From positions 1 to 25,618 of the forward strand of contig JAHJDK010000149.1 of assembly GCA_018812505.1 (NCBI GenBank): a stretch of DNA of 25,618 nt, given 5' to 3'. Shown here piece after piece: positions 2,781-24,097 of this stretch (positions are counted from its first letter, which is position 1; each line of letters starts with the position of its first letter). The notes beneath the pieces were generated by a model that was given only the letters and a program-made list of their open reading frames with translations, did not search any database and was not told the DNA's origin. A program made the position numbers and the translations under genes. The DNA is from Nanobdellota archaeon. Its GTDB lineage: Archaea > Nanobdellota > Nanobdellia > Woesearchaeales > GCA-2686295.

Positions 2781-3008
2781 TTATTTATCAGCCCAATCCC
2801 TGATAGCCTGATAACCCTTTACTCCTGCATAAGTCAAGGCAGCAGCTTTTAGCAAAGGAGCACCAACAATCATTGCAACGCCAAAACCGACAGCGCCGTA
2901 CAATGCTTTATTCTTATTGGCTAATAAATTAATAGGATTAGGATTATAATCAAGAGTTTGAACCTTTAACTTGCTTATTAATTTATCAGTTATTAAACCT
3001 ATATCCAT
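2781..3008 (-). CDS. Small membrane protein with a Gly/Ala-rich hydrophobic segment
   Basis: Hydrophobic stretch ALYGAVGFGVAMIVGAPLLKAAALTYAGV. The track's GTG start at 3017 lies inside a GAGGTGA SD, so the ATG at 3008 is preferred. Confidence 0.65.
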   Translation of the reverse strand: MDIGLITDKLISKLKVQTLDYNPNPINLLANKNKALYGAVGFGVAMIVGAPLLKAAALTYAGVKGYQAIRDWADK

Positions 3009-3013
3009 AAAAA

Positions 3014-3667
3014 TCACCTCTGGCTAGTTTCATATTGACGGTAAAGATTATCAAGATACTCAGTAAACATTAGGTTGATCTTGTTCTTTGTATCTGCACC
3101 CAGCATTTGCTCATACTTTCCAAAATTAAGATTAACACCCTTGCTAAATAAGTCATCATCAACCATTACAGTATCAACACCATTGCTCAAGTACAAGTTG
3201 TTCTTACCATTCTCATCCTGAGCAACCAATAATTGAATGTTCTGAACAGCTATAGAGTTATAATTCTCTCCATGCTTTGAGATTTGTGCTGATTTGAAAA
3301 GTTCAAAAGAACCATCAATAATACTATCTAAACTGTCATCATCAAATTTGTTTTGTTCGAATCTTTGCTTCAAACCATCAAGCATATTTTTAGTAGAGGG
3401 AAGCATATCATACAACACCTTAAGTTTCTTGCCAGTAGAGTTATTAACAAGATAAGTATCCATGGCGCCGCTATCATTCTCTTCCCAGTCAACCTCTAAT
3501 ATTGCAGGGCTTTTGAAACCATTCTCAGCAATAGGCACGTTCCTGTTAAACAAGTTATAATCAAGTTTCTTTATATCATTGTGATAGGCATAAGCAAGAA
3601 AGAAAACAGTCAGAGCGCCACCCTTAGCAAGAATTGCCCAACCCCACTTACCAAGTCTCTTGCCCAT
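3014..3667 (-). CDS. Hypothetical single-pass membrane protein (N-terminal anchor)
   Basis: MGKRLGKWGWAILAKGGALTVFFLAYAY anchor. AGGTGA SD at 3674-3679. Coupled to both neighbours. Confidence 0.7.
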   Translation of the reverse strand: MGKRLGKWGWAILAKGGALTVFFLAYAYHNDIKKLDYNLFNRNVPIAENGFKSPAILEVDWEENDSGAMDTYLVNNSTGKKLKVLYDMLPSTKNMLDGLKQRFEQNKFDDDSLDSIIDGSFELFKSAQISKHGENYNSIAVQNIQLLVAQDENGKNNLYLSNGVDTVMVDDDLFSKGVNLNFGKYEQMLGADTKNKINLMFTEYLDNLYRQYETSQR

Positions 3668-4150: not shown

Positions 4151-4582
4151 TTATTCAATTCCATCCAATAATATTCGATTGTATGTATATCCTTTAATTG
4201 TTGCATTATCAGCTTCATCCTGTCTTCCTAATGCCATAAGCACTCTGGCTTTTCCATCCCATGCCATCTGGTTTTCCTGGCTGAATTCTTCTGTCAACTC
4301 TGTGACTTTGTCGTAGCACGAAAGTGCCCTCTCTGGCTGTTTAAGATATGCATCATATATTAGTGCTTGAACAGCCCATGCTTCAACATTGTAAGAATCA
4401 TTATCAGTTATTACCTGCCAATACTCTAAAGACTTATTGTATTGCATTTCATTGTATAGCTGCAATGCTTTATCTCTTAAGTTACTGATGTCTGCAGATA
4501 TTTCTTCTGGATTTCTAACTCTGATAACTATTTCTTCCAATGCTTTGAATTCTTCTTCCGGATTGATTATTTCTTCAGACAT
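4151..4582 (-). CDS. TPR protein with shared N-terminal leader (EEIINPEEEFKALEEIVIRV)
   Basis: TPR-like AWAVQALIY..PERALSCYDKV and AWDGKARVLMALGRQDEA. The start at Met4 of the track ORF aligns the leader. Confidence 0.75.
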   Translation of the reverse strand: MSEEIINPEEEFKALEEIVIRVRNPEEISADISNLRDKALQLYNEMQYNKSLEYWQVITDNDSYNVEAWAVQALIYDAYLKQPERALSCYDKVTELTEEFSQENQMAWDGKARVLMALGRQDEADNATIKGYTYNRILLDGIE

Positions 4583-5417
4583 TTTTTTCATACGTTACTC
4601 CTAGTACATTTATTGCCATTCCCTCTTGTAATTTATCTCTTAATAGCATTAGTTCATGAACGTTTGCCTTGAAGAAAATTGATGGATTGCTTACTTTGAA
4701 AGATGTTTTATTTAATTCTTCTTTTATGTAATTTGCTAATTCTATTTGTTCTATGCTTCTAAGTTGTTTTATCGCTTCATTGTATGAATGATTGCTTTGA
4801 ATTATTGTTGTGTGAGTTACTTGCTGCTGATACAAGTCTTTCTTTAGCGTTTCTACACCGTATCTTTTGTTGTTCAATGCTTTTTCGCTTATCTCTTTCA
4901 GAGTTTCAAGTTGCTCTCTAATGTCTTTAAATGTTTCTTGACTATAGTTCCCATTGCATGAACCTATATTTTTTAGTCTTGTATCAATTCTTAGTTGTTG
5001 TTCTGCTTTGTATCTTCCGGATTTTTCTAGTTGTTTGTCATATGTTTGTATAAGAAATTCAAGTTTTTCCTCGTTGTCAGGTTCCTGACTTACAGCTTCC
5101 AAGATTATTGGATTAGCTATCTTGAAATATTCTTCTGCTCCTCTAATAAATGTTTTTATAATTAATTCTTTATGATTACAGGTTTCTTCACTATCATCTA
5201 TTATTGCTAATTCTTCAGTTATTTTGTCTGATAAGTTTTTAACTGCCGGCATGAACTTGTTAATATATAAGTTTGTTTGTCTTGACTTGCTCATTTCAAA
5301 ATCGTAATAGACTATTACTTCATCTATGCTTGAGTTGTTGCTTTGATTATTTATTCTAATAATTGTTTTCTTTAAAGCTTCAAATTCTTCTTCCGGGTTG
5401 ATTATTTCTTGGATCAT
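4575..5417 (-). CDS. Hypothetical alpha-helical protein with shared N-terminal leader (QEIINPEEEFEALKKTIIRI)
   Basis: 280-aa ORF rich in E/K/I/L, overlapping the next gene. No family recognised. Confidence 0.7.
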   Translation of the reverse strand: MIQEIINPEEEFEALKKTIIRINNQSNNSSIDEVIVYYDFEMSKSRQTNLYINKFMPAVKNLSDKITEELAIIDDSEETCNHKELIIKTFIRGAEEYFKIANPIILEAVSQEPDNEEKLEFLIQTYDKQLEKSGRYKAEQQLRIDTRLKNIGSCNGNYSQETFKDIREQLETLKEISEKALNNKRYGVETLKKDLYQQQVTHTTIIQSNHSYNEAIKQLRSIEQIELANYIKEELNKTSFKVSNPSIFFKANVHELMLLRDKLQEGMAINVLGVTYEKNV

Positions 5418-5418
5418 C

Positions 5419-6453
5419 TTACATATAGTTCATCATTATACTGCGTGATTTTTCTAATAATCTATTTCCTTTATTGTACAATTCAGTATATCTTTTGGTT
5501 GCTTGGACATTGATTGATCCTCCGAAAAATTTATCTAGCGAACTCGTAGGTTCTCTGCTAGTATCTATTTCGTTTGCTTCATCATAGAATTTCTGCGCTT
5601 GTTTTTTGTATTCATTAGCTATTTCTTCTGCGAACTTTCTGAATTGAGAACTTATCTTTCTTCCTTTCATCCGATTAATCTTTTCAAATATTTTCTCTTG
5701 TTCTCCGAATGAATTTATACTCATTCCCATTTTTGAAATCTTATCAACTAACTTGCTTTCAGCCCACTCATCTCTTTCATCATATGGTCTTGACTCGAAT
5801 AAACTGATTAGTTTGTCAATTTTTTCTTTTGCGCTTCCGCATTTTGATTCAATTAGTTTTTCTGCTTTGTCAAAGTCATCATTCCGCACGTATAGTTTGG
5901 CTAGTTTTTCCTTTATCTCTGTTGCTCTGTAGCTGTCTACCTGTATTTCAAGGATTTCTTTGTACAACTTTATGGCTGTGTCCAATGTGTAACTCTTGCT
6001 TTCCGCTTCTCTAGCTTTGTTTATTAATAGTTCATAAAGCCTGTTTTTTGCTCCGGAATTATTAGAATCTAGGCATAGTATCTTGTAAAGCAGTTGTTTC
6101 TCTTTATCAACACTTTCTCCTCGATACACTTCTGCTAGTTTGAATAAGTAATTAGTGTTGTCAGGTTTGAGACTTACCAGTTCCTTCACTAAGAATTCTC
6201 GATTGGAGAAGCTATGACATACATAATTTGTTTTGTACACAAAGTTTTCAAGACCTGATGTTATTATTTTTCTTTGTGTTTCATTCAGTCCTTTACTCTT
6301 TGCTTTACTGATAGCAGTCCTAACCTTTTGTATGTTACTGGATTCAAACGCTTCTTTCAACAAGTCATCTACAGGTATGATTACCCTTATCTCTAGGTTT
6401 GCAAGTTTTTCAAACTCTCTTTCAATATCCTTAATGTCTTTGTCAAGAGTCAT
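5419..6453 (-). CDS. TPR-like helical repeat protein with shared N-terminal leader (MTLDKDIKDIEREFEKLANLEIRV)
   Basis: TPR-like segments LKPDNTNYLFKLAEVY, AIKLYKEILEI and KLAKLYVRNDDFDKAEKL. ATGA overlap with the upstream gene. Confidence 0.75.
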   Translation of the reverse strand: MTLDKDIKDIEREFEKLANLEIRVIIPVDDLLKEAFESSNIQKVRTAISKAKSKGLNETQRKIITSGLENFVYKTNYVCHSFSNREFLVKELVSLKPDNTNYLFKLAEVYRGESVDKEKQLLYKILCLDSNNSGAKNRLYELLINKAREAESKSYTLDTAIKLYKEILEIQVDSYRATEIKEKLAKLYVRNDDFDKAEKLIESKCGSAKEKIDKLISLFESRPYDERDEWAESKLVDKISKMGMSINSFGEQEKIFEKINRMKGRKISSQFRKFAEEIANEYKKQAQKFYDEANEIDTSREPTSSLDKFFGGSINVQATKRYTELYNKGNRLLEKSRSIMMNYM

Positions 6454-7133
6454 TCTATTGTTATGTTATCATAGTCTATTATTCTCATTAATGATTTTTT
6501 GAAATCTTGCTCGCGTGGATTTATCTCTATAGCTTTATTAATAGAATTAACTGCTTCTTGGTAATCTTTTAGTTCCCACAACGCATCAGATTTGTTAACC
6601 CAAAAAACGCTTTTTCTTGGATTAATTTCTATTGCTTTATCAAAGTCTTCAATTGCTTTTAGTAACAAGCTCTTTTTTTCTTGAACTCTTTTTGGGGTGT
6701 TTTGGTTTATAGGTATATTTTTTGCAATTTCTTTCAGTGTATATCCTTTATAGTTCCAAGTATATTCATAGTTAGGATTTTGAGCTATGGCATTTTCAAA
6801 ATATTTGACTGCTTCTTTGTAATGTTTATCTTTCAGATTTGAGCATGCTTTTGAATACCATTGGTTGGTTTTGCTCTCAGATTTTGTTACTTCAAGCCCT
6901 TGTTTTTCTTGTTCTACTCTTAAAAGGATATTACTAACTATTTCCTCTTGTTGGTACTTTAATTGATCCACAAGGATGATAAAATTTCTGTAAATTTGGT
7001 TCACTTTACGGAGTTTCTCAACAAGGATTTCTTGATTAACATCATTTTTTTTTATAGTTTTGATTTTGATAACTACTCTTTCCAATGCTTCAAACTCTCT
7101 TTTAATATTTTTTATGTCTTGGTCAAGGGTCAT
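6450..7133 (-). CDS. Coiled-coil plus TPR protein with shared N-terminal leader (MTLDQDIKNIKREFEALERVVIKI)
   Basis: TPRs: WYSKAC..YKEAVKYFENAIAQNPNY, TWNYKG, FWVNKSDALWELKDYQEAVNSINKAIEINP. Confidence 0.85.
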   Translation of the reverse strand: MTLDQDIKNIKREFEALERVVIKIKTIKKNDVNQEILVEKLRKVNQIYRNFIILVDQLKYQQEEIVSNILLRVEQEKQGLEVTKSESKTNQWYSKACSNLKDKHYKEAVKYFENAIAQNPNYEYTWNYKGYTLKEIAKNIPINQNTPKRVQEKKSLLLKAIEDFDKAIEINPRKSVFWVNKSDALWELKDYQEAVNSINKAIEINPREQDFKKSLMRIIDYDNITIE

Positions 7134-8125
7134 TTTGTCCTGTAGATGTTGTTGTGAATAAAACTTTTTATTATTGTATCACTTTCTGTTCCGTGAGTGT
7201 TCTTTTTTATTTCATTCATAAACTCTAATTCATTTGTTTGTGCCTTGGAATATAATCCTCCACCTCTTATGTCTGCGTGATTGTTAGTTATTTTATTAAG
7301 TCTAAAATTGTTTGAAGATTTGTAGGCACATATACCTCCTCCATAACCATATGCTTTGTTGTTCACTATGATATTTTCTTTTATCAATGCATCAGAATTG
7401 AAGAGGAGTATTCCTCCTCCTGATCCTGCAATGTTGTTTTGTATCAAACATTCTTGTATGGTGCAGTTAGATTTTGTTATGAATATTCCTCCACCATATG
7501 TGTTTATTCCGCTAAATGTTGGAAAATCCCAAAACATCATTGTATCTGTGTAAAGATATTCTTTTTTCAGTAATGAATATAGGTGATATTGACCTAATCC
7601 CTTCTCGATTATACAGTTCTTCAGTATGCTGTCATTTGAGTTTTCTCCTGCTACAGTTATATTTCTCCAAGGACTAGAATGTGATGTGAATATTATTTTT
7701 TCTTTTTCTGTCCCTATAGCTTTAAGTGTTCCATAACAGATTATCCCTCCAGTACTATGGGCAAATAAAGGATTTAAGTCTAGTTCTGTTCCTGGCTCTA
7801 TCTCAAGTGTTCCTCCAGAGTTTATTATTAAGGGAAAATCAATTTCATATTTTCCTTTTTTTAGTAATATATATTGATCTATTCCTCTTGCTAGTTTGAA
7901 GTATTTTGATATATTATCTATTGGTTTGCCAAACCTATCAACCACTTCAAACTTATTATTTATGACTTTGATTACAGAATTCTCGAGTTCTTCAAGTTCT
8001 TTTGATTTAAATGGCTTGTCACGTTTATCGACCACTCTAATCTCACTGTCTATAATTTTTATTACTACATTTTCCAACTCGTCGAATTCTCTTTCAATAT
8101 TTTTGATTTCTTGGTCTAAGGTCAT
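7130..8125 (-). CDS. Right-handed parallel beta-helix (pectin-lyase-like) protein with duplicated N-terminal leader
   Basis: LIINSGGTLEIEPGT, GTLKAIGT...IIFTS, and repeated GGGI/L plus N-rich rungs (GGGIFI..SNCTI..CLIQNN.A, GGGILL.NS.ALI.ENII.NN.A). The leader segment occurs twice. Confidence 0.8.
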   Translation of the reverse strand: MTLDQEIKNIEREFDELENVVIKIIDSEIRVVDKRDKPFKSKELEELENSVIKVINNKFEVVDRFGKPIDNISKYFKLARGIDQYILLKKGKYEIDFPLIINSGGTLEIEPGTELDLNPLFAHSTGGIICYGTLKAIGTEKEKIIFTSHSSPWRNITVAGENSNDSILKNCIIEKGLGQYHLYSLLKKEYLYTDTMMFWDFPTFSGINTYGGGIFITKSNCTIQECLIQNNIAGSGGGILLFNSDALIKENIIVNNKAYGYGGGICAYKSSNNFRLNKITNNHADIRGGGLYSKAQTNELEFMNEIKKNTHGTESDTIIKSFIHNNIYRTK

Positions 8126-8988
8126 CTTGTTTTATTTAATAGTGTCTTTTGCGCTATCTTTTTATTTTGTTTATATATTTCATTTGAAGGGTTTATGTTT
8201 ATTGCTTTATCATATGCTTTTATTGCTTCTTCATATTTCTTAATTCTTTCAAGTGCCACTCCTTTGTTGTTCCATGCTGTTGCGTATTTTGGTTTTATTG
8301 TTATCGCTTTGTCATAACATTCTATTGCTTCTTCTATTTGTCCTAGATTTTCTAGTATAAATCCTTTATTAATCCATGTTTCTGTGAGTTTTGGTTTTAT
8401 TTCTATTGCTTTGTCATAACATTCTATTGCTTCTTCTAGTTGTCCTAATTCGGATAATATTACTCCTTTGTTGTTCCATGCTGTTGCAAATTTTGGTTTT
8501 ATTTCTAGTGCTTTATCACATGCTTTTATTGCTTCCTCTAGTTTCCCTAAATCTTTTAGTGCCATTCCTTTGTTGTTCCATGCTGTTGCATATTTTGGTT
8601 TTATTCCTATTGCTCTATCATATGCTTTTATTGCTTCTTCTAATTTTCCTAGATTTGCTAGTTCTACTCCTTTGTTGTTCCAAGCAAGTCTATGATTTTG
8701 CTTTAGGCTTATTGCTTTGTTATATCTTTTAATTGCTTCTTCTAGTCGCCCTTCTTTTCCTAGTGCTTTTCCTTTGTTGTACCATTCATCTGCTATTATA
8801 TGCCTTATGAGTGAGTGTTTTCCTTGAAATTTTAGATTGTCTATTGTTTCGTATGTTCCAAACACTGTCAGAAACATCACAGCCAAGAACCATTCAGGAA
8901 TTTTTATAAGACGTTTTTTTCTCTTTATTTTTAATCTTCTTAACTCGTCAAATTCTCTTTCAATATCTTTTATTTCATCAAGGCGCAT
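8122..8988 (-). CDS. Membrane-anchored TPR protein (6 TPRs) with shared N-terminal leader (MRLDEIKDIEREFDELRRLKIK)
   Basis: Six 34-aa canonical TPRs (AWNNKG..L..LG.LEEAI..YDKAI.IKPK) follow a basic patch and a hydrophobic segment (WFLAVMFLTVFGTY). The start at 8988 aligns the leader; the track start is 9024. Confidence 0.88.
   Translation of the reverse strand: MRLDEIKDIEREFDELRRLKIKRKKRLIKIPEWFLAVMFLTVFGTYETIDNLKFQGKHSLIRHIIADEWYNKGKALGKEGRLEEAIKRYNKAISLKQNHRLAWNNKGVELANLGKLEEAIKAYDRAIGIKPKYATAWNNKGMALKDLGKLEEAIKACDKALEIKPKFATAWNNKGVILSELGQLEEAIECYDKAIEIKPKLTETWINKGFILENLGQIEEAIECYDKAITIKPKYATAWNNKGVALERIKKYEEAIKAYDKAININPSNEIYKQNKKIAQKTLLNKTR
8182..8793 (-). repeat. Coding tandem repeat with a unit of about 102 bp (six TPR units)
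   Basis: The plus strand shows recurring ttgttgttccatgctgttgc / ttctattgcttc blocks at a 102-nt period, matching 34-aa TPR units. Confidence 0.85.
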
Positions 8989-9032
8989 ATTTTTTTTATT
9001 CCCCATTTTTTTGTTTAAAAACAATTAAAAAA

Positions 9033-10370
9033 TTATTTTGGCAGTAGCTCTACCAATGTTTTGTATTTTTTCCAGGTGTTTTGATTGTTGCACACTGGAT
9101 TTTTGTATCTTAAGAGGTTGCTTCTTTGTGTCTTGACTTGTTCTACTTCTTCTTTCTTGAATTCTGTACTGCTGATTGTTTCTTTTAAGTCTATGACTTC
9201 TCTTAATTTTCCTTGTGTAAATTCATAGTCTTTCTCCCATCTTTGACGTATGGTGTTGTCTAGTGGGTTTCCTTTCAGTAATGCTTGAACTTCGTCCTTA
9301 CTAGTGTATTTGCCAATTTCGTTGTTCACTTCTTTGAGAAATTCTTCTCTTGCATTCGCTAATTTCACTATGTCTCCTGCTGACAATAATTCTTTGTTTG
9401 AGTTTGTCACTTGTTCTATTTGACTGAGGTATCTTCGTTCTATTGTTTGGTATAGTTCTGTTGGTTTTACTTCTGGTGTTGCAGTTGGTCCGCCGTGAAA
9501 TTCTTCCAGAAACATGTCTATTGTTGAGTACCTGTAGTCTTTGATATTCTTGCCTGTTAGGTTGTCAGGAGTTTTTATCTCAAGCATTCTTCTTAGGAAG
9601 TATTTGGAGTCTTTTGTTATGTTTAGCTGTGCTATTTGTGCCATTACAAAATCATAAAATATTGAGTGTTCCTCTCCAGGCCACATATTTCTAAGTGTTT
9701 GATGCGTTCCTTCAATGTTGAATCCTTGGAATGCTTCAACTCCCAAACCAAATATGTCTGTACTTTGAGAGTACTGCATGGTTTTTTTGAAATATTGTTC
9801 TATTAATTCGTAGGAACTGTATTCTATCGCGCTTTGATGACTTCTTGTACTTCTTTTCTGTGATGCATATTCAAAGTCTGAAACAGTCCAGATTATCTTT
9901 CCTCCTTCTTTGTATCCGAGACAGTTTGTGTCTTTTGGGTCTCTGTAAATATATCCTGCCAGATGCAATTCTTTGTTTCCAAGTGCTAATTGTATTATTA
10001 TATCCCACATTTCTTCTTCAAAGTTTTTATTCTGGTCTAAACTTGGAAAGAACTCTTTCAAATTCATATCTGCCCTTTCCATTAAAACTGCTTTATACCC
10101 TGCATATACTAGCGGCTTGGTTCCTATCAATCTCGCGAGGTGTGTTCTATCTTTTACATCTTGTATAATTTTATAAGTTCTTTCACTCTGTTCGCCTGTT
10201 GTGTCCCAGAGAGGAACTTTTAATGCACAGTTTAGGTTGTTCTCTTTCTGCTTCATAAAAATAATCAATGTATCATTTTTTATTCCTTCATCTTTTATAT
10301 CTGTAAATCTTTTATCATCTTCTAAATCATCTAATATTAGTTCTTTTATTTCGCTGTCTGTCATCTTCAT
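9033..10370 (-). CDS. Atypical Hanks-type Ser/Thr protein kinase with C-terminal helical extension
   Basis: ALKVP (subdomain II Lys), VLME, YIYRDPKDTN (catalytic loop), VSDFEYA (DFG-like), YSSYE (APE-like), STDIFGLG (subdomain IX). No clear GxGxxG loop. Confidence 0.85.
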   Translation of the reverse strand: MKMTDSEIKELILDDLEDDKRFTDIKDEGIKNDTLIIFMKQKENNLNCALKVPLWDTTGEQSERTYKIIQDVKDRTHLARLIGTKPLVYAGYKAVLMERADMNLKEFFPSLDQNKNFEEEMWDIIIQLALGNKELHLAGYIYRDPKDTNCLGYKEGGKIIWTVSDFEYASQKRSTRSHQSAIEYSSYELIEQYFKKTMQYSQSTDIFGLGVEAFQGFNIEGTHQTLRNMWPGEEHSIFYDFVMAQIAQLNITKDSKYFLRRMLEIKTPDNLTGKNIKDYRYSTIDMFLEEFHGGPTATPEVKPTELYQTIERRYLSQIEQVTNSNKELLSAGDIVKLANAREEFLKEVNNEIGKYTSKDEVQALLKGNPLDNTIRQRWEKDYEFTQGKLREVIDLKETISSTEFKKEEVEQVKTQRSNLLRYKNPVCNNQNTWKKYKTLVELLPK

Positions 10371-11230
10371 ATCCTCCCATATATCATGAATGTTATGTTA
10401 TCACCTAGCTTATTGGTGATGTCAAGATTAAACTCTTCTGTCAAGCTTAGCGAATCATATGCGTCTCTTATCATAATAGGATTCTCTGCTATCCATCTCA
10501 AATCTTCCTTGATTTGTTCTTCTTTAGTTCTTTTCTCACCCAAAAAGATTCTGCTTATAATATTTTGTTCTATCTGGCTGTCGTATAGTATTCCTAAAAT
10601 CTCTTCTTCTGCAACCATACTTGTAAATCCATCAGTTCCCATTATTAGTATATCTCCATCTTTGAAAGGTTTTTCATATAGCTCAACATTTATGTTTGGT
10701 TCTTTTCCAATGTAGTTTGTCAAATCTGATTCTCCTTTCAACACTTGTTGTTCTGTCTCTAAGAGTTGTGAGATATCTTTTGGCAGGTATACTTCTTCTG
10801 TTGTTAGTTTTTCTATTGTGTCGTCTTGGATGTTTGCAATATATACTGCTCCATCTCCGACGTGTCCACCATATAGTTTGTTGTTATAAATCATGCAGGT
10901 ATCAAGCGTCGTTCCACAATGTGATAATTATCCTACATTCTTTGCTATGCTAGTTATTACTTGGTTTGTTTCTCCTATTGCTCTGCTAATTCTTCTCAGT
11001 ATTTTTTCTTCTTTCACAATACCTCTTTCTAATCCTGATTGCAACATCAACATTTTTTTCATCAGGTAGTAGGTTGTTAGATCACTTGCTTCTGCTCCTG
11101 CTGCGTGTTGTCTTCCACCCATACCATCTGCCATCAAGAATATTTTTTTCTCAAAGTCTGCTCTTAATGAGTCTTGATTTTCTTCTCTCGTACCTATTGT
11201 TGATTCCCATATACAGTTATTTTCAGTCAT
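10367..11230 (-). pseudogene. PP2C/PPM-family protein phosphatase interrupted by one in-frame TAA (10928-10930)
   Basis: The two track ORFs share a frame: ...AKNVG-TAA-LSHCGTTLDTC-MIYNN. PPM motifs lie on both sides: GTREENQD and MADGMGG before the stop; GTT, HVGDG, MGTDG and GDNITF after it. AGGTGGA SD precedes the ATG at 11230. Confidence 0.85.
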
Positions 11231-13463
11231 TTTTCTCCACCTGTGTTCTTGTTTTATCAAAATTATTTATGTCTAATGTTTCCATGCAATAATTGTTTCC
11301 TTCATGGTATATTGCGAGCATGTTTCCTGGTTTGTCTGAGAAAAAGAATAAGTTTTCATCTTGTGTCCATATGCTTGTTTTGTTTTCGAATAATTCATTT
11401 TGCAGTACATATATCTGGCTTGTTCCTTTGAACAAGTCTTGTTTTTTGTAGTAGTTATTGATTATAATTCCTTCTGGTTCTTGGGTTATAACCTGAATTC
11501 CTCCTTCATCTAAGTTTGTGACTGCAATTGTTTTGAACATAGTGGTTATTTCTCTTGCTTGATTATTTTCAAGGTCTTTTACAATCATGTTTCCTTGCAG
11601 TTCGTTGTAAAACATCAGGTTGTTTTGTTCGTTTAGGATTTTTATCCTGCCTATATCTGTTTGTGAAGTTATAATTGGTGTGGAGATTATTCTTTGTCCG
11701 TCAAATACATACATTTCTCTTGGTGTTGCTAAGATTAATCCTTTATGATATGGAATAATCCTTTGCACTTCTAGATTTGTGTTTGTTATTCTTATTAGTC
11801 CTTCTTCTGGTTGGTACACACATATACTCGTTCTGTTATTATCTGTTCTTAAGAAGTATAAGTTTTCATTGTAACTCATGTCTTGTATGAACGGTCCAGC
11901 CTCATTTCTTGTTATTGGTTCTGATATGTGTATTGGTTTATTGTTATGTTTTTCGAACACAAATAATTTGTATTCAAATGTTTTACCTCCATGATTTCTT
12001 TCACTTAGACCAAACACTTCATTATCTCCTATTGCAAATGCACCTAATCTGGTTCTTTTATGTTCATAAGCCATCTCACTCCAGTTTGTAGGTCTGGATT
12101 TCTCGATTGGAAGGTTAAGAATGTATGTTGTTATTATTGGTGTTTTTGACTTATTAAATGAGTATTCTACTATTGTTCTATCGCTTATTTTTGAATGAGT
12201 GTAAATCCTTGAGTTCAGTGAATTTGTCAATAATCTTTCTTTGTTTATTGGAGTTTCCTCTCTGTTTATAATAATTGCATTTGCATTTGATCGTGTAGTA
12301 ATAACTCTTGTTGATGCTTTAAACATGTTCAGCATTAGCTCTGTGTCATCATTTGCAGTTAATTTGTGAAATTCTTTTGGAAGGTTTGTGTTTATAACTG
12401 CTTCTAAGGATTCTGTTGGTCCTACGATTCTATCTTGTATTTGTTGAAAGTCCTGATTTGAAAACAATTCTAGTTTGTCTTCGTTTAACTCTGGAAATCC
12501 TCTCTCAAAGGTTGTTGGCAGTTTGAAAAAATAATGATTATCACCTATTTTGTATGGAATCCCTATTGTTGTTGTGCCTCTGTTTATGACTGCTTTTGTT
12601 AGCTGCTGTATGGCTCTACCTGTTGGTATTGCTGTTGGTACTTCTCTTAGTAATTTTTCAATTGGTGTGTCAGAATATTTTCTTTGTAAGTAATCTATTT
12701 CCCATTCGATTTGTTTAACAGCCCATTTGTTGAGTTCTGAAACAATTTCTCCTTCATGTTCTCTTATTAAATCATATATTCCAAATGTTACATCCTCGTC
12801 CCAGACGGTTGTTCCTATTATTATTTCTGCACTCCTCAAAATTGGCCATGGCCTGTCATGATATCCGGATATTTCAATATTTATTCCTTCGTAAGCGTTG
12901 AATTTCTTGTTGATAAAAGTTTTCAGTATTTGTTTGCACCTTGCTTCTTCTATTGGTACGTGTGCTGTTATCTGTCTGATTGATGGGATGTTCCATCTTT
13001 GTGCTGCGTAGTGTGCGAGTGCTTCTGGCAGGTTTGATACTATGTTTATTATTCCTTTGAATTCCTGATTGAAATATTTTGCAAGTTCATCTATTAATGG
13101 CAGGTTGCTTTCAATCATGTTTGGTCTTTCTTTTTCTGTTGAAAGGTGTTTGCTTGCTGTGAAGAAGAAAAGACTTGTTTCTTTCAGAATTGTTTCTAAA
13201 TCATCCTTGTTGCTGTTTATGATTTCTGTACAATACATAGCTCTGTTTTCAGATGTTATTTCCTGCGCTCTTTTTTTCATACCCTCTCTTTTATCATAAC
13301 TGCCCTCGTTTCCAACAAGATATATTTTATTTATAGGTCTAAATATCTCATGTTCAGTTGTTGCGCATATCGCTGCTAATCCTTTCTCTGCAACTCCTCC
13401 ACATCCATAGAATGTAATATTGAACTCTTCATTATTTGATTTCTGAGCTTTTTTCGTGTTCAA
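11223..13463 (-). CDS. Fusion of an LDH/MDH-like Rossmann domain and a probable C-terminal beta-propeller
   Basis: ITFYGCGGVA (dinucleotide loop), ERPNMIESNLPLI, IVSNLPE, PIEEAR and ISGYHD resemble the LDH/MDH R..N, SNP, DxxR and GEHG motifs. The C-terminal ~350 aa consist of repeated short beta-strands. GGGGAG SD then TTG at 13463; the track start is 13493. Confidence 0.65.
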   Translation of the reverse strand: MNTKKAQKSNNEEFNITFYGCGGVAEKGLAAICATTEHEIFRPINKIYLVGNEGSYDKREGMKKRAQEITSENRAMYCTEIINSNKDDLETILKETSLFFFTASKHLSTEKERPNMIESNLPLIDELAKYFNQEFKGIINIVSNLPEALAHYAAQRWNIPSIRQITAHVPIEEARCKQILKTFINKKFNAYEGINIEISGYHDRPWPILRSAEIIIGTTVWDEDVTFGIYDLIREHEGEIVSELNKWAVKQIEWEIDYLQRKYSDTPIEKLLREVPTAIPTGRAIQQLTKAVINRGTTTIGIPYKIGDNHYFFKLPTTFERGFPELNEDKLELFSNQDFQQIQDRIVGPTESLEAVINTNLPKEFHKLTANDDTELMLNMFKASTRVITTRSNANAIIINREETPINKERLLTNSLNSRIYTHSKISDRTIVEYSFNKSKTPIITTYILNLPIEKSRPTNWSEMAYEHKRTRLGAFAIGDNEVFGLSERNHGGKTFEYKLFVFEKHNNKPIHISEPITRNEAGPFIQDMSYNENLYFLRTDNNRTSICVYQPEEGLIRITNTNLEVQRIIPYHKGLILATPREMYVFDGQRIISTPIITSQTDIGRIKILNEQNNLMFYNELQGNMIVKDLENNQAREITTMFKTIAVTNLDEGGIQVITQEPEGIIINNYYKKQDLFKGTSQIYVLQNELFENKTSIWTQDENLFFFSDKPGNMLAIYHEGNNYCMETLDINNFDKTRTQVEKND

Positions 13464-13493
13464 AATTATCTCCCCAAAACTTTTGAAAAACAA

Positions 13494-13546
13494 AATTTAA
13501 ATTGATTACTACTCGACAGTCACAGAATAACGGCAACATTTAAATA
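13494..13546. promoter_or_regulatory. Divergent promoter region with back-to-back TATA-like boxes
   Basis: TTTAAATT on the minus strand at about 13494-13501 (operon) and TTTAAATA on the plus strand at 13539-13546 (TrmB), separated by a GC-richer tract. Confidence 0.5.
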
Positions 13547-13577: not shown

Positions 13578-14303
13578 ATGAATGAAGACATACTTACAGA
13601 TTTAGGATTAAGCACTAACGAAGCAAAGATATACACTTCTCTATTATCATTAGGTCTAACAACCATAACCTCTATCGCTCATGAGTCAAAGCTTCACAGA
13701 TCAAACGTTTATGATTCTATAAAAAAACTTGTTGAAAAAGGACTAGTTGCATACATCATAAAAGATAATGTGACATACTATGAAGCTACAGACCCGCAAG
13801 CGCTTCTAAGGATATTAAAAGAAAAAGAAAACAGGTTGAAAGCTGTTTTGCCACAACTGATGCTGTCAAAGAAGCTTGCACAGTCAAAAGGCGAAGCGCA
13901 CATCTACGAGGGAGTGCCTGCATTTACAAGATTGTTGTACGAGTTCTTACAATATAAAGATCCAATACTTGCATACGGAATTCCACCTATTGCTCCTGAA
14001 CTTATGAAAACCAAGATAATGCATTTTCACAAGGAAAGAATGGCACTGAAAATACCAATGAAGCACATATATAACCACAATGCTCAGGAACGCATAGTAT
14101 TTCTTAATAAGATGAAACTCACTTATGCAAGGTACCTTCCAGAATCATTCGATTCACAGGTATCAACAAACATTTGTGGAGAGGAAGTTTTATTGACTTT
14201 GTGGATAAAACCTGTTCTTACGATTCAAATAAAAAATAAGTTAGTCGCTGACTCCTACAAGAAATACTTTGACCTTCTATGGGCTGCTGCAAAAGCAGAT
14301 TAG
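13578..14303 (+). CDS. TrmB-family transcriptional regulator (wHTH plus effector-binding domain)
   Basis: LGLSTNEAKIYTSLL.LG.TT...IA.ESKLHRSNVYDSIKKLVEKGLV, Y.A.DP..L, and a C-terminal IKN..VADSYKKYFDLLW typical of archaeal TrmB-like proteins. Confidence 0.9.
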   Translation: MNEDILTDLGLSTNEAKIYTSLLSLGLTTITSIAHESKLHRSNVYDSIKKLVEKGLVAYIIKDNVTYYEATDPQALLRILKEKENRLKAVLPQLMLSKKLAQSKGEAHIYEGVPAFTRLLYEFLQYKDPILAYGIPPIAPELMKTKIMHFHKERMALKIPMKHIYNHNAQERIVFLNKMKLTYARYLPESFDSQVSTNICGEEVLLTLWIKPVLTIQIKNKLVADSYKKYFDLLWAAAKAD

Positions 14304-14701: not shown

Positions 14702-15277
14702 ATGAGCAGTAACACACAAACAGATATGTTAATGATAGAATTCCAACAAGGAAATGAGTTGGCAGGAATACAAATCTACGAGCAAACATGGAACTATGTG
14801 AATAACTATTTAAAAAACAGTATGCCAGAGTTATCAAACTATGGAATAGATTCACAAGATATCACCCAGCAAGCATTCACGAAGATGTTTCTTAGAAACC
14901 ATCAATTCCAGTCAAGATCATCTGTGAAAACATGGCTGTGCAGCATTGCAAGAAACGAAGCAAAAATTGAACTTAAAAAAAAATCTAATAAAAACTCATC
15001 TCTGGACTTAATACTGGAAACAAATGGAGACTCTATAATGTATGAATTACAAGAAAATAACTATTATGATGATCAAGAAAATATGAATAGAGTTAGGTGT
15101 GCAGTTTCAGACTTAGGCAAAAAAAATCTTAATCAAGCAACAACGTTCATTCTAAGATATATGCAGGGATTAACAATAAAAGTTGTTGCATTAATGACTG
15201 ATTCAAACATATCAACTGTCAAAACCAGAAGTCACAGGGCAATGAACTATGTCCGAAGAATAATAGGACAATACTAA
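14702..15277 (+). CDS. ECF-type sigma-70 family factor-like protein
   Basis: Region 2: DSQDITQQAFTKMF....FQSRSSVKTWLCSIARNEA. Region 4.2 HTH: FILRYMQGLTIKVVA......STVKTRSHRA. At 191 aa it has typical ECF size. Confidence 0.88.
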   Translation: MSSNTQTDMLMIEFQQGNELAGIQIYEQTWNYVNNYLKNSMPELSNYGIDSQDITQQAFTKMFLRNHQFQSRSSVKTWLCSIARNEAKIELKKKSNKNSSLDLILETNGDSIMYELQENNYYDDQENMNRVRCAVSDLGKKNLNQATTFILRYMQGLTIKVVALMTDSNISTVKTRSHRAMNYVRRIIGQY

Positions 15278-16219
15278 TTATTTTTTTGTCTCTAATTCTT
15301 TCTTCTTCTTTTCAAGATCTTCAAGCTTCTTGCCATTAAGCTTTTTTGCAAAGAAAGGTAAAAATATGTTTGCATTAGCAAGCCATAACAACAAACCGAC
15401 AACAATAGCAATTATTGCATATAGCAAGTATTGACTGTAAAAACTTGCAAGTTGATCTGAAAGAACACTTACGATTTTTGTAATCATTTTTTGAGGATCT
15501 ATAGGAATATCCCCTCCAACAATCTTTGAAAGGTCTAACTTTCCAAAAACCCATCCAAGAGCATTTGTCTTGGCAAGAATATATGGAAATATGAATATTG
15601 CAGAGACAAAGAAAACCAGTTTTCTGGCAATGTAATCTGATAGTATCAACAAGTCATTATTAATCAAGTACAATATTAATAACAAAACAAAAATGCCTAT
15701 TAGTAGGTATAAGTTTAAAAAAATACTTTTCTCCTTTAATTCATCAATAGAATTACCAGCATCAGTGATTGTTTCACCAAGGCTTTCAGCAATTTGAACA
15801 GCGGCATCTTCTTCAAAAGAATCCATTTTAACATCCAGAACTGCATCAATCATTGTTTCACGGTCAAGACTTCCATTAGCACATTCTCTTTCAAAAACAA
15901 ACAGTACATCTTCATCATCAGTTTCTATTTGGTCTGAATATTCGCAAAGGTCTCCTTCAGGCAACTCATCAAGATTGTGTTCAACCATAACATCCTGAAT
16001 ATCATCATCCGAGAGCATATCATCAACGTTTTCAATCACAACAGATGCCAATTCAGAAGATAAGTTTTCAGCGTTATCCTCAAAATGCTTTATCGTGCTT
16101 TCAGAAACAGTTAAGGTTAACAATAAAATAAGAACTAAACTTAGACCAAGAATTAAAAATGCGTTTATCAAGCGATTATACCACTGAAGCTTTCGTTTTT
16201 TATAGTCACTAATTTTCAT
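15278..16219 (-). CDS. Hypothetical multi-pass membrane protein with an acidic soluble loop
   Basis: N-terminal TM (AFLILGLSLVLILLLTL), a D/E-rich domain, then about three further hydrophobic segments and a basic C-tail. Confidence 0.75.
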   Translation of the reverse strand: MKISDYKKRKLQWYNRLINAFLILGLSLVLILLLTLTVSESTIKHFEDNAENLSSELASVVIENVDDMLSDDDIQDVMVEHNLDELPEGDLCEYSDQIETDDEDVLFVFERECANGSLDRETMIDAVLDVKMDSFEEDAAVQIAESLGETITDAGNSIDELKEKSIFLNLYLLIGIFVLLLILYLINNDLLILSDYIARKLVFFVSAIFIFPYILAKTNALGWVFGKLDLSKIVGGDIPIDPQKMITKIVSVLSDQLASFYSQYLLYAIIAIVVGLLLWLANANIFLPFFAKKLNGKKLEDLEKKKKELETKK

Positions 16220-16291: not shown

Positions 16292-16711
16292 TTAATTAGA
16301 ATAGGCTGTGTGAAAAGATTTTTCTTTTGCATCCATTTTTATTCTCCAAACCTTACACTCTAACTTATATGCTTCTGTGAAGATTGGTTCATAGTTGGAA
16401 TTAATGATTCTCTTTAGAAATCTACTTCTATATTTAGAATCTATATTATTAACCAGACGCTTTAGCTCATGTTCTACATTTTTAGCATCATCCCTTACCA
16501 ATTCATAGTCCACTGCAGTAACTGACTCACTCAGCCTAGATATTAAGTTAGAAACTTTATCTTTGTATATTTTAATAGTAGATTTATAATTTGCTATGTC
16601 GCCAGAAACAGGTTTGGAACCATTTGATTCTGAATTTTTAACTTTTATTTTTACATTTTTAAGCGCATTAAATTCCAGTGCTATTCGTAAAACTTCCTTG
16701 TCCAAAGTCAC
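16292..16711 (-). CDS. Helical protein with shared leader (MTLDKEVLRIALEFNALKNVKIKV); paralog of the N-half of 16751-17674
   Basis: GTG start. Aligns along its full length to the neighbour (SKYRSRFLKRIINSNYEPIF vs SKYRTKVLKRVINPAYESIF). Confidence 0.75.
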   Translation of the reverse strand: MTLDKEVLRIALEFNALKNVKIKVKNSESNGSKPVSGDIANYKSTIKIYKDKVSNLISRLSESVTAVDYELVRDDAKNVEHELKRLVNNIDSKYRSRFLKRIINSNYEPIFTEAYKLECKVWRIKMDAKEKSFHTAYSN

Positions 16712-16718
16712 ATCATTG

Positions 16719-16750
16719 GTAATGCTTGCAGGTTTTTAAAGGTTATAGAA
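16719..16750 (-). repeat. Duplicated 32-bp promoter segment (second copy at 17682-17713)
   Basis: gtaatgcttgcaggtttttaaaggttatagaa vs gtaatgcttacaagtttttaaaggttatagaa, 2 mismatches. Contains TTTAAAAA on the minus strand upstream of both GTG starts. Confidence 0.85.
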
Positions 16751-17674
16751 TCAATAATACTTTTTATTGGATTTTCTGGCAATGTAGATACCTGTTGCTA
16801 ATCCAATCACAGCACCTGATATCATGCCATGAATTGTTAAATCAGAACCTGATGAGTTCATAGCCATTTCGTGACAGACACTTCCTAAGCCTACAGCTCC
16901 AATAAAAGTACCTAATCCTCCATATAAAACATATTTTCCGGCTTTTACAAGACATCTAAAAACAGGTTTAAAGTCAACATCTTCAATCAGGTAAGGAAAC
17001 ATTGCACCTATAATACCTGAAAAACCAGTCATTATAGCTATTATTGCTCCTTGATCTTTATCTCCGTTAATTGTAACTTTACTTAAATAATAAGTACCTA
17101 TACCTCCTCCTGTTGCAAATAAAAGAGTTCTTGCAATACCCCATTTTAATCTGGAGCTTATATTTAATCCAGGTTCATAATAATTTTTTTCTGGCTCATC
17201 ATTAATTAATGAATTTAAAGAATTAGTAACAGAAGGTTTATATTTGCGCTCATATTTATAAGCTCGAGCTGCAGAATTAGATTTCTCTTCTGCATCAAGT
17301 TTTATTATCCAAGCCTTACCTTCTAAAGAATCAGCTCTTTTAAAAATAGACTCGTATGCAGGATTAATCACTCTTTTTAGAACTTTAGTTCTGTACTTTG
17401 AACCTATTTCATCGACCAAATGCATTAATTTAGTTCCTATCTTATCAGAATCTGACTTTAGCGTTAAAAAATCTTCTGCATAGATGGCTTCTCTCATTTC
17501 AGATGTTAAACTTGAAATTTTTTTTTTATATCCTTTAAGTATTGATTCATAGCTCGTAATATCATCAAGAATAACTTGTGAAACCTCAGGCGCAGGTTCT
17601 TCAACTCTTATCTTTGCATTTTCAAGTGCTTTAAACTCTAATTCTATTTTTAGAATCTCTTTGTCTAATGGCAC
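16751..17674 (-). CDS. Leader-bearing protein (MPLDKEILKIELEFKALENAKIRV) with a helical domain and four Gly-rich C-terminal TM segments
   Basis: GIARTLLFATGGGIGTYYL, GAIIAIMTGFSGIIGAMF, YGGLGTFIGAVGLG and GMISGAVIGLATGIYIA (GxxxG-rich). Confidence 0.8.
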   Translation of the reverse strand: MPLDKEILKIELEFKALENAKIRVEEPAPEVSQVILDDITSYESILKGYKKKISSLTSEMREAIYAEDFLTLKSDSDKIGTKLMHLVDEIGSKYRTKVLKRVINPAYESIFKRADSLEGKAWIIKLDAEEKSNSAARAYKYERKYKPSVTNSLNSLINDEPEKNYYEPGLNISSRLKWGIARTLLFATGGGIGTYYLSKVTINGDKDQGAIIAIMTGFSGIIGAMFPYLIEDVDFKPVFRCLVKAGKYVLYGGLGTFIGAVGLGSVCHEMAMNSSGSDLTIHGMISGAVIGLATGIYIARKSNKKYY

Positions 17675-19182: not shown

Positions 19183-20190
19183 ATGGCCTATATTCATAAA
19201 AAGAAAATTGGAGAAAAAACATACTACACATTAAGAATTTCTGTTAGAATAGGAGAAAAGGTTATAGCAAAAGATATTGAAGTATTAGGAACAGATATAT
19301 CAAACATAAAAATCGATGACTTAGAAAAGAAACATAGCAAAGAAATAAGAAAATCTTACTATACAATCAAAAAATTCTTAGAAAAAAACAGGTATGAAGA
19401 AGAATTAAAGAATCAAAAATTGAAAAAACAAGAATTACTAACAACAAATCAATTAATAAAAATAGAATCAACAAAGAAGCATTACCAAAATAAATTCTTA
19501 AAACTACACGAACTAACGCAAAAAGACATCCTAGAAATATTCCTAATAAGATTTGCAGTTAATACAACTGCAATAGAAGGAAACACAATAACATTAAAAG
19601 AAGCAATAAAACTATTCAAAGAAGATCAAATACCAAAAAATCATACCACAAGAGAAGTGTATGACTTGACAAATACAAAGAAAGTCTTTTATGAACTATT
19701 GGAAACTAAACAAGAAATAAACAAACAACTAATGATAAACATTCACGACAAACTATTAGACAATATCGACGAAAGAAAAGGATTTAGAAATCACGATATC
19801 CACATATTTGGGCAACCATTCAAACCAACACCAACACAATTTGTTAGAAGGGATTTAGATTTACTGTTAGAATGGTATAAAAAAAACAAAAAGCAATTAC
19901 ATCCATTAGTATTAGCGACACTATTTCATCACAAATTTGAGAGCATACACCCATTTAGCGATGGAAACGGACGAACAGGAAGAATGATGATGAATTTAAT
20001 AATGATGCAAAACGATTATCCACCAATAGTTATTGAAAGAAGAAATAGAAAAGAATATTTAGATGCAATGAGCGAAGCAGATAAAGCAACAAAAAAAGAT
20101 TTGAAATCAAACAAACAAGAATATTTGAAGTTAATAGAATTTACAACAGAACAATTAGTAAAATCTTATTGGGACATATTTTTATTCTAA
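19183..20190 (+). CDS. Fic-domain protein (AMPylase-like) with an internal inhibitory helix
   Basis: Canonical HPFSDGNGRTGR. (S/T)xxxE(G/N) motif TTAIEGN lies N-terminal to the Fic core. TTTATAAA at 19153-19160. Confidence 0.93.
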   Translation: MAYIHKKKIGEKTYYTLRISVRIGEKVIAKDIEVLGTDISNIKIDDLEKKHSKEIRKSYYTIKKFLEKNRYEEELKNQKLKKQELLTTNQLIKIESTKKHYQNKFLKLHELTQKDILEIFLIRFAVNTTAIEGNTITLKEAIKLFKEDQIPKNHTTREVYDLTNTKKVFYELLETKQEINKQLMINIHDKLLDNIDERKGFRNHDIHIFGQPFKPTPTQFVRRDLDLLLEWYKKNKKQLHPLVLATLFHHKFESIHPFSDGNGRTGRMMMNLIMMQNDYPPIVIERRNRKEYLDAMSEADKATKKDLKSNKQEYLKLIEFTTEQLVKSYWDIFLF

Positions 20191-23755: not shown

Positions 23756-24097
23756 ATTTCTAAACTTATTTCAAAAAAATCAGCACCCTACTTCAGAGAT
23801 ATATATGACCATGCAGTGAGAGTTTCTGATTCTATAGACAACTATCGAGAAGCAATAGGAGGAACATTTGATGCTTATATGTCTGCAATCTCAAACAATA
23901 TGAACGAAGTGATGAAAACCCTCAGCATAATAGCCACTATTGCGCTACCACTAGGAATAATATCAGGGATATTTGGAACCAATTTTGACCTATTACCAGG
24001 ACAACACATACATTATGGATTTTGGCTGATGATACTTCTAATGATGACCTTTATGGGAGTAATGCTGTACTATTTCAAACGAAGAGGATGGTTTTAA
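23756..24097 (+). pseudogene. corA: 5'-truncated CorA-family divalent cation transporter (C-terminal stalk plus 2 TM only)
   Basis: Homology extends upstream of the track GTG to PYFRDIYDHAVRV and ends at an in-frame TAA at 23753-23755. SNNMNEVMKTLSIIATIALPL, GIFGTNF and YYFKRRGWF follow. About two thirds of CorA is missing. Confidence 0.85.

Follow-up and report, generated by a model that had tools for sequence, protein, structure and literature searches.

A fixed LDH-propeller/PP2C/Hanks-kinase gene unit in woesearchaeal genomes: apparently an undescribed variant of the kinase/phosphatase switch

The contig JAHJDK010000149.1 of the Nanobdellota assembly GCA_018812505.1 (Woesearchaeales), analyzed here over its whole length of 25,618 nucleotides (nt; hereafter the window), carries on its minus strand three consecutive genes: one for a protein that joins a domain with the fold of L-lactate and malate dehydrogenases (LDH/MDH) to a β-propeller (the fusion protein), one for a PP2C-type phosphatase, and one for a Hanks-type protein kinase. 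All three are present at the place where a first-pass annotation of this DNA, made from the sequence alone, had put them, and since TFB repeats are present in the genome, its view that the host is an archaeon is correct as well. The three genes stay together as a fixed unit at all loci that we recovered; in the window the trio lies beside a gene for a TrmB-family regulator and ahead of six genes whose products share a short N-terminal sequence, here called the tag. The module is real and conserved, and it represents an apparently undescribed variant of the kinase/PP2C switch; a literature search that included the Woesearchaeota and the DPANN archaea found no description of an LDH-propeller/PP2C/kinase arrangement. 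We favor, with a probability of roughly 55%, the reading that the module is a TrmB-controlled phospho-switch built on the fusion protein as a hub, in which the kinase and the phosphatase would modify this hub and/or the tagged repeat proteins that dock onto it.

Gene neighborhoods provide the evidence for a fixed unit. Wherever a homologue of the fusion gene is found on a long enough contig, the genes for PP2C and the kinase come next, and in most cases a divergently oriented trmB gene is positioned upstream. We sampled 401 genomes, representing 257 genera, from the archaeal order to which the window genome belongs; the profile of the propeller domain is matched in 18 of them, 16 of which possess a full-size fusion gene; the fusion gene is distributed over 13 genera. 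A full-length kinase of this family is encoded by 14 of the 401 genomes, all of them fusion gene carriers, and in each of these the kinase gene adjoins the fusion gene. Within the genus, genomes G000, G006 and G007 harbor the trio and the others lack the module, and a relative with the module (G155) is placed in the same order as the window genome. We regard the module as accessory, mobile or often lost. Hence, the remark of the first-pass annotation that such an operon is unexpected in a reduced genome is better replaced by its description as an accessory system, which is present in about 4% of the sampled genomes of the order.

A Pfam scan of the window's fusion protein yielded no match, Ldh_1_N included; this model does match, above its cut-off, the related proteins of two sister systems (L053 and L055; see below). 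Homologues are few: a word-indexed search with the fusion protein returned four, with lengths of 746 to 819 residues, and an exhaustive profile search recovered only 89 cluster representatives among 1.84 billion, with no ordinary LDH among them. When a profile of 48 homologues was compared with the PDB, it matched structures of L-LDH and MDH over positions 24-363 (residues ~24-370) with a best E-value of 7e-27. Residues R123, G147, R185, G210 and H212 are nearly invariant in these 48 sequences; judged by the hidden Markov model (HMM) alignment and LDH residue numbering, we take R123, R185 and H212 to be the counterparts of the substrate-binding Arg109 and Arg171 and of the catalytic His195 of LDH. 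By the same alignment and numbering, E182 presumably stands at the position of LDH Asp168; the window protein has a Glu at this place, and the other four sequences of the alignment that we termed A1 have an Asp. A GxGxxA motif is found at residues 30-35. Given this homology and the residues kept, the N-terminal part of the fusion protein is therefore a divergent LDH/MDH homologue that is probably still competent to bind a ligand.

The C-terminal part of the fusion protein was assigned from its predicted structure. A whole-protein AlphaFold2 model (756 residues, five sequences) was poor, with a predicted local distance difference test score (pLDDT) of 48.8, and was discarded; the propeller was then refolded alone (residues ~395-756, 362 residues, 45-sequence alignment), which gave an all-β model with a pLDDT of 91.3 and a predicted template modeling score of 0.88. 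Foldseek matched this model to propellers with a probability of 1.0 and template modeling scores of up to 0.57 (the seven-bladed methylamine dehydrogenase). The best 50 matches listed comprise WD40, methylamine dehydrogenase, Kelch, prolyl-oligopeptidase-type and designed propellers, and no other fold was recognized among them. The strand list of the model gives about seven blades, the first of which appears to be closed by the last strand. Thus, the designation "LDH-like/propeller" used in the first-pass annotation holds for both halves of the protein. None of the three module proteins contains a transmembrane segment in a hydropathy scan.

The kinase exceeds the PF00069 cut-off only narrowly (34.4 bits, cut-off 31.7) and is the sole match to Pkinase above the Pfam cut-off in the assembly. 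A word-indexed search with it returned itself alone, and its relatives were found via gene neighborhoods and whole-genome searches. When a six-sequence profile of this family was compared with the PDB, eukaryotic-type kinases were matched with an E-value of 7.5e-22. The Lys of strand β3, the catalytic Asp, the Lys two residues further on and the Asn of the catalytic loop are shared by all 16 family members, 15 of which also have the DFG Asp. In the window kinase, the family-invariant K51, D144, K146, N149 and the Glu of the APE motif (E188) are all in place; its catalytic loop reads YRDPKDTN and its DFG motif DFE. A cluster of Thr and Ser residues in the activation loop is conserved across the family, a feature that suggests autophosphorylation of the kinase. 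The catalytic domain is followed by a helical extension that ends, in the family, with the motif WGPP...RY[ST]L; the ESM Atlas model of this extension returned generic helical-bundle matches only.

In the window, the PP2C gene runs in one frame that is interrupted by a stop codon. When the interrupted codon is read through as X, the protein matches PF13672 with 35.8 bits (cut-off 24) across the break and PF00481 with 29.9 bits (cut-off 20.3). All family-invariant residues are kept (D20, D35-G36, G106/T108, H123/G125, D200, D277), and among them are the four metal-binding Asp residues D20, D35, D200 and D277. The alignment column in which the stop falls is variable among the homologues (E, Q, T, D). 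The first-pass annotation was right to regard the trio as a genuine kinase/phosphatase unit.

The stop codon and the fact that the C-terminal motif of the window kinase is degenerate could both be read as signs of an operon in decay, with the module being lost from a shrinking genome. We compared contigs from four public sequencing runs with the region, and the stop site is covered by two of them, X1 (a 2016 biofilm metagenome, which may be the source sample of the window assembly) and X2 (a 2017 metagenome). In both runs, the sole covering contig, at full depth, has a plus-strand T>G change at 10929 that converts TAA to TCA (Ser). Therefore, the stop is probably a minority allele or an assembly error rather than a fixed lesion, and at the level of the population the phosphatase is likely intact. 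Moreover, all other catalytic motifs of the three proteins are intact, and the window differs from the X1 and X2 assemblies at only two positions in 4.7 kb: the stop, and an A>C change at 11413 (plus strand) that is seen in run X3 as well and replaces Ile694 of the propeller by Arg. On these grounds we consider decay of the operon very improbable. At the PP2C/kinase junction (10174-10407), a low-depth contig from a groundwater run (X4) shows 18 listed differences (21 along the contig) and a 3-nt deletion at 10278; it looks like a second, more distant strain.

The first-pass annotation had described the three genes as coupled. The stop of the fusion gene and the start of the PP2C gene overlap by 8 nt (ATGACTGA), and the stop of the PP2C gene overlaps the start of the kinase gene by 4 nt (ATGA); because of these overlaps, translational coupling of the trio is likely. 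A second, alternative TTG codon of the fusion gene lies at 13463, which is the end coordinate used in that annotation. Its further claim, that the trio runs on into the six tagged genes, is right with regard to gene order, and among the tagged genes themselves the junctions are tight (-4, -4, -4, +1 and -8 nt). The gap behind the kinase gene is different in character: its T-runs and its TATA-like TTTTTAAAC, situated 29 nt before the ATG at 8988, make a shared transcript of the trio and the tagged genes uncertain in this genome. A hairpin with a T-run is listed at 9056..9038, at the end of the kinase gene, and the gap may act as a partial terminator combined with an internal promoter. Scans for sigma-70 promoters and intrinsic terminators stayed at the level of shuffled sequences, with models that are unsuited to an archaeon. 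The positions of these and the other features are compiled in Table 1.

Table 1. Features of the module and its surroundings (positions are those of the whole 25,618-nt window; dots separate the two ends)
Feature	Position	Strand	Remarks
Fusion gene (LDH/MDH fold plus propeller)	13493..11223	-	756 codons, TTG start
LDH/MDH-like Rossmann and catalytic domain	12384..13436	-	residues ~20-370, profile match
Seven-bladed β-propeller domain	11226..12251	-	residues ~415-756, AlphaFold2 and Foldseek
PP2C gene	11230..10367	-	one frame, interrupted by TAA
In-frame TAA within the PP2C gene	10928..10930	-	TCA (Ser) in other assemblies
Kinase gene	10370..9033	-	445 codons
Kinase catalytic domain	9501..10253	-	residues ~40-290
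Helical C-terminal extension of the kinase	9033..9500	-	~160 residues, family alignments
Gap between kinase gene and first tagged gene	8989..9032	-	44 nt; T6 and T5 runs, TATA-like TTTTTAAAC
Six tagged genes	4151..8988	-	TPR, β-helix and unknown domains; presumed clients of the module
TATA box TATTTAAATGT	13536..13546	-	module promoter; purine-rich BRE-like stretch ahead of it
TrmB-type palindrome gACT-N7-AGTA	13507..13521	-	~25 nt downstream of the TATA start, at the expected site of transcription initiation
TrmB-family regulator	13578..14303	+	divergent; PF01978 E = 8.8e-17
Two more tagged genes, beyond TrmB	16292..17674	-	tag HMM E = 5e-12 and 3e-11

On its other side, the fusion gene adjoins the gene for the TrmB-family regulator, and this divergent arrangement recurs in most of the homologous loci, in which the regulators are 50-70% identical. 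The intergenic regions between TrmB and the module have a common build: 10 of 11 contain the box TATATAAAT[AG]T, and a purine run resembling the TFB recognition element (BRE) is common to them. In 8 of 10 loci, the palindrome [TC]ACT-N3-9-AGT[AG], for which these regions were searched, lies 23-25 nt downstream of the start of the TATA box, and its observed spacers measure 4-7 nt; none of 2000 shuffles reached that count. The copy in the window is slightly degenerate, like that of locus L004. These palindromes are in line with the published operators of TrmB, TACTN3AGTA and TACTN7-8GAGTA, at which TrmB represses by blocking the recruitment of RNA polymerase (PMC4158304). On this basis, TrmB is likely a repressor of the module.

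The tag connects the trio to the variable genes behind it. In the 1.4-Mb assembly, an HMM of the tag gives eight matches, all of them on the contig studied here and all in variable proteins; this model was used because a strict regular expression retrieved three genes only. The first-pass annotation had made its proposal depend on whether homologues of the kinase and the phosphatase are linked to tag-bearing genes in other genomes, and they are: genes 3' of the kinase gene carry a tag in 14 of 15 loci, with at least two adjacent tagged genes in ten loci and one candidate in four. Each locus has its own version of the shared N-terminus, such as GGIEKKIKNR (four genes of L015), EGELE..IEQI (three genes of L016), DQNLE.KLEGI (six genes of L019), the TLEDDL and PIEDDL types (seven genes of L044) and EDLEQ.LG.I (four to five genes of L045), and further locus-specific types are found in the other loci. 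A motif search nevertheless extracted from these the common core [LI]-E-x-[KRE]-[LIF]; the conserved core of the tag spans nine residues, and in this genome the tag extends over about 25 residues. With scoring matrices trained on other loci only, 32 of 46 tagged N-termini fall into the top 5% of 949 background N-termini, where about two would be expected, a result that overstates the significance since related loci are not independent.

The proteins that bear the tag contain TPR, MORN, right-handed β-helix, PD40, FG-GAP or DUF2087 domains, or no known domain. In a hydropathy scan, 37 of 47 lack a hydrophobic segment, and four possess one directly after the tag; such a placement would keep the tag in the cytoplasm, the compartment predicted for the three soluble module proteins. 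In locus L004, a second and degenerate PP2C-like protein (15021-15851, 3' of the kinase gene; profile E = 2e-10) begins with an N-terminal RLEDLI and may be a pseudophosphatase client. A docking prediction with the fusion protein and a 40-residue tag alignment returned a score of 0.00 and, run without controls, is evidence neither for nor against an interaction.

The first-pass annotation had inferred that the module controls the assembly or deployment of the tagged proteins and had hinted at the Thr or Ser residue in position 2 of their tags, which the kinase would phosphorylate. The observation behind this hint is correct, as among the six operon tags three have Thr and one has Ser in position 2, and Thr2 is also present in six of the seven L044 tags. 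However, the tags of L015, L016, L019, L040 and L047 do not contain Thr or Ser at this position, and neither residue is conserved in the tag core; for this reason the role of Thr2 as a phospho-acceptor is unsupported. In addition, proteins starting with Met-Thr or Met-Ser are common owing to N-terminal processing. We thus regard this mechanism as improbable.

In the reading that we favor, TrmB would repress the operon until an effector arrives. The fusion protein would then serve as a cytoplasmic hub whose LDH-like domain, with its Arg/Arg/His set, might bind NAD(P)H or a 2-hydroxy or 2-oxo acid and probably oligomerizes, while the propeller or the tail of the kinase would dock partner proteins. 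Kinase and PP2C would toggle the hub and/or the tagged repeat proteins by reversible phosphorylation of Ser and Thr residues; the tag would be a docking handle, presumably an N-terminal helix, and not itself the acceptor of the phosphoryl group.

Several observations weigh against this interpretation. The identities of the domains, their retained catalytic residues, the constancy of the trio, the promoter with its operator and the association with the tag are its foundation, and from these we infer, indirectly, every interaction and every target that it invokes. When proteins were scored with a matrix for the tag, none of the core proteins rose above chance level. In locus L001, the trio is present and no tagged gene lies 3' of its kinase gene, and the T-runs behind the kinase gene of the window leave room for a separate transcript of the tagged genes. 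The PP2C gene of the window carries an in-frame stop. As to the kinase, the DFG Asp is absent in one family member, a glycine-rich loop (GxGxxG) ahead of the β3 Lys is present in no aligned member, and the WGPP...RY[ST]L motif has degenerated in the window. Finally, genomes G005 and G002 of the same genus retain just the TrmB gene and a short LDH-like gene, without the kinase, as would suit a core function in metabolism.

In an alternative reading, the fusion protein would be the sole substrate of its own kinase and phosphatase, i.e., a 2-hydroxyacid dehydrogenase that is switched by phosphorylation in a manner reminiscent of the kinase/phosphatase control of pyruvate dehydrogenase and isocitrate dehydrogenase, with the propeller docking both modifying enzymes and the tagged genes having a separate role. 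The strict 1:1:1 co-occurrence of the overlapping genes and the conservation of the LDH catalytic residues are well accommodated by such an arrangement, and regulators of the TrmB family classically govern sugar metabolism (PMC4158304). The kinase-less pair of TrmB and a short LDH-like gene in G005 and G002 also speaks for it. Furthermore, the genome studied here, 84% complete, yielded no canonical LDH or MDH. Across the sample, however, a canonical LDH is present in two of the 16 module-positive genomes as compared with about a quarter of all 401, and most genomes contain neither; the idea that the module replaces a canonical LDH was consequently dropped, as the two distributions are not complementary. 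A phospho-regulated dehydrogenase also leaves unexplained why tagged repeat proteins follow the kinase gene in nearly all loci and why, at the level of genomes, the module is tied to the cluster of AAA and transglutaminase-like genes described next. We consider it an unlikely explanation.

On the far side of TrmB, most loci possess a cluster of genes for small membrane proteins, a protein with an Mrr-like nuclease fold, a coiled-coil protein and an AAA ATPase; it further contains genes for proteins of the DUF5906-like and transglutaminase-like types and, at some loci, for a MoxR-like ATPase and a vWA protein. The latter two were confirmed by Pfam in L019, and precomputed weak matches to AAA_5 hint at their presence in L001 and L004. 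In the genome studied here, the cluster is found on a separate contig (C79, 2867-7713) that ends inside the gene for the transglutaminase-like protein, and neither MoxR nor vWA was found in it. The reading frame of the AAA protein on C79 seems to stop early, near 5390, and the tblastn match runs on to 5528. Of the 401 genomes, 40 encode a marker protein of the cluster, namely 14 of the 16 that are module-positive and 26 of the remaining 385. Together with the AAA ATPase and the transglutaminase-like protein, the module forms part of a larger accessory system.

Among the other marker-positive genomes, related systems without a detectable PP2C are encoded at four further loci (L053, L055, L056 and L057, in genomes G030, G157, G293 and G063, respectively). 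Their LDH-like fusion proteins have 673-824 residues, and the corresponding genes adjoin a TrmB gene and the cluster of Mrr-like, coiled-coil and AAA genes; in L053 and L055, one or two kinase genes lie upstream of the fusion gene, which is more LDH-like. These loci, too, possess tags of their own, with the sequences KRLD.I..IE and TLLELVDEIV.

The composition of this neighborhood raises the possibility that the trio is the regulatory arm of an NTPase-peptidase-nuclease system for immunity or host interaction, with the tagged proteins as diversifying sensors. This proposal concerns the physiological role and is compatible with the hub-centered phospho-switch. The systems surveyed by Kaur et al. 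in 2020 (PMC7159879) likewise combine AAA/MoxR and vWA proteins, a transglutaminase-like peptidase, kinase and PP2C, and repeat-containing sensors, and in them several variable neighboring proteins, effectors included, have one short adaptor domain in common. The enrichment of the cluster marker, a weak resemblance of the cluster's AAA ATPase to IetA (E = 5e-7), the patchy distribution over genera and the fast-changing, locus-specific tags and client sets would all suit a role in biological conflicts. In contrast to the systems of Kaur et al., MoxR and vWA are found in some loci only and did not turn up in the C79 cluster, and the tag is confined to variable proteins and never found on a core component, on which those systems are expected to have one copy of the adaptor. 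No PADLOC system model matched, the only similarities being weak ones to MkoA and IetA; the tagged proteins include no recognizable toxic effector and consist of binding repeats instead. No VMAP component turned up in the loci, a search aimed at VMAP not having been made. We rate a function in defense or conflict as a possibility deserving attention, yet on balance not the probable one.

When compared with known systems, the module resembles in gene arrangement the bacterial pairs PknB-PstP, PrkC-PrpC and Stk1-Stp1, in which genes for a Ser/Thr kinase and a PPM-type phosphatase are adjacent, co-oriented and overlapping; by this likeness it would be a reversible switch. It departs from the PknB-PstP type in that its kinase has no membrane anchor (no hydrophobic segment was seen in the hydropathy scan of the kinase), no PASTA sensor domain (none was detected with Pfam) and no glycine-rich loop, and has instead the helical C-terminal extension. 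In contrast to the bacterial pairs, the kinase gene always comes after a gene for an LDH-propeller fusion, and the host is an archaeon. With the PpkA-PppA-Fha1 pathway of the type VI secretion system, the module shares the location of a kinase/phosphatase pair inside an operon of presumed targets, but Pfam scans of the open reading frames (ORFs) of the window revealed neither an FHA reader nor genes for a secretion machine. The dehydrogenase domain resembles L-lactate and malate dehydrogenases in its fold, its GxGxxA dinucleotide motif and its Arg/Arg/His set, and differs from them in being fused to a propeller, rare, and too divergent for Ldh_1_N. As in the TrmB operons of the Thermococcales and haloarchaea, a TrmB-family gene stands by a promoter with a TACT...AGTA palindrome near the BRE and TATA elements; the genes presumably controlled here, however, encode signaling proteins and not proteins for sugar transport or glycolysis.

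Some features around the locus deserve mention. At the far end of the tagged genes, two ORFs have counterparts in related loci. One of 75 residues (2781-3008) shares 44% identity with a small protein encoded at the outer edge of the L047 AAA cluster, and one of 217 residues (3014-3667) shares 47% identity with the product of the gene behind the tagged ones of L015, so that the system may reach to about position 2781 of the window. Adjoining the TrmB gene, an ORF at 14702-15277 resembles sigma-70 regions 2 and 4, in an archaeal genome, and a Fic/DOC-domain protein is encoded a few kb from the locus (19183-20190). A 93-residue ORF (23816-24097) aligns with the CorA profile over no more than its final 90 positions and may be a truncated or mis-started gene for a magnesium transporter. 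An Rfam scan of the window detected no RNA family.

To our knowledge, very little has been learned about signal transduction in DPANN archaea, whose genomes encode few recognizable sensors. The module provides a concrete and testable system in this regard, with a regulator and its operator, defined clients and a common tag core. If the fusion protein indeed acts as a hub for kinase, phosphatase and docking proteins, this would constitute a new way to build a receptor kinase from separate parts; if a role in defense applies, an added family of archaeal immune systems would have been found. More speculatively, and in our estimation improbable as a complete picture, the module could be an archaeal "modular kinase" in which a soluble hub, formed by the oligomeric fusion protein with bound kinase and phosphatase, takes up interchangeable TPR, MORN, β-helix and PD40 receptor subunits, some of them membrane-anchored, via the shared N-terminal helix, comparable to the way in which cullin ligases accept F-box or DCAF receptors, and in which an NAD(P)H or 2-oxoacid site of the hub gates signaling according to the metabolic state. 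A DPANN episymbiont equipped in this way could couple the contact with its host, or the sensing of viruses, to its very limited metabolism.

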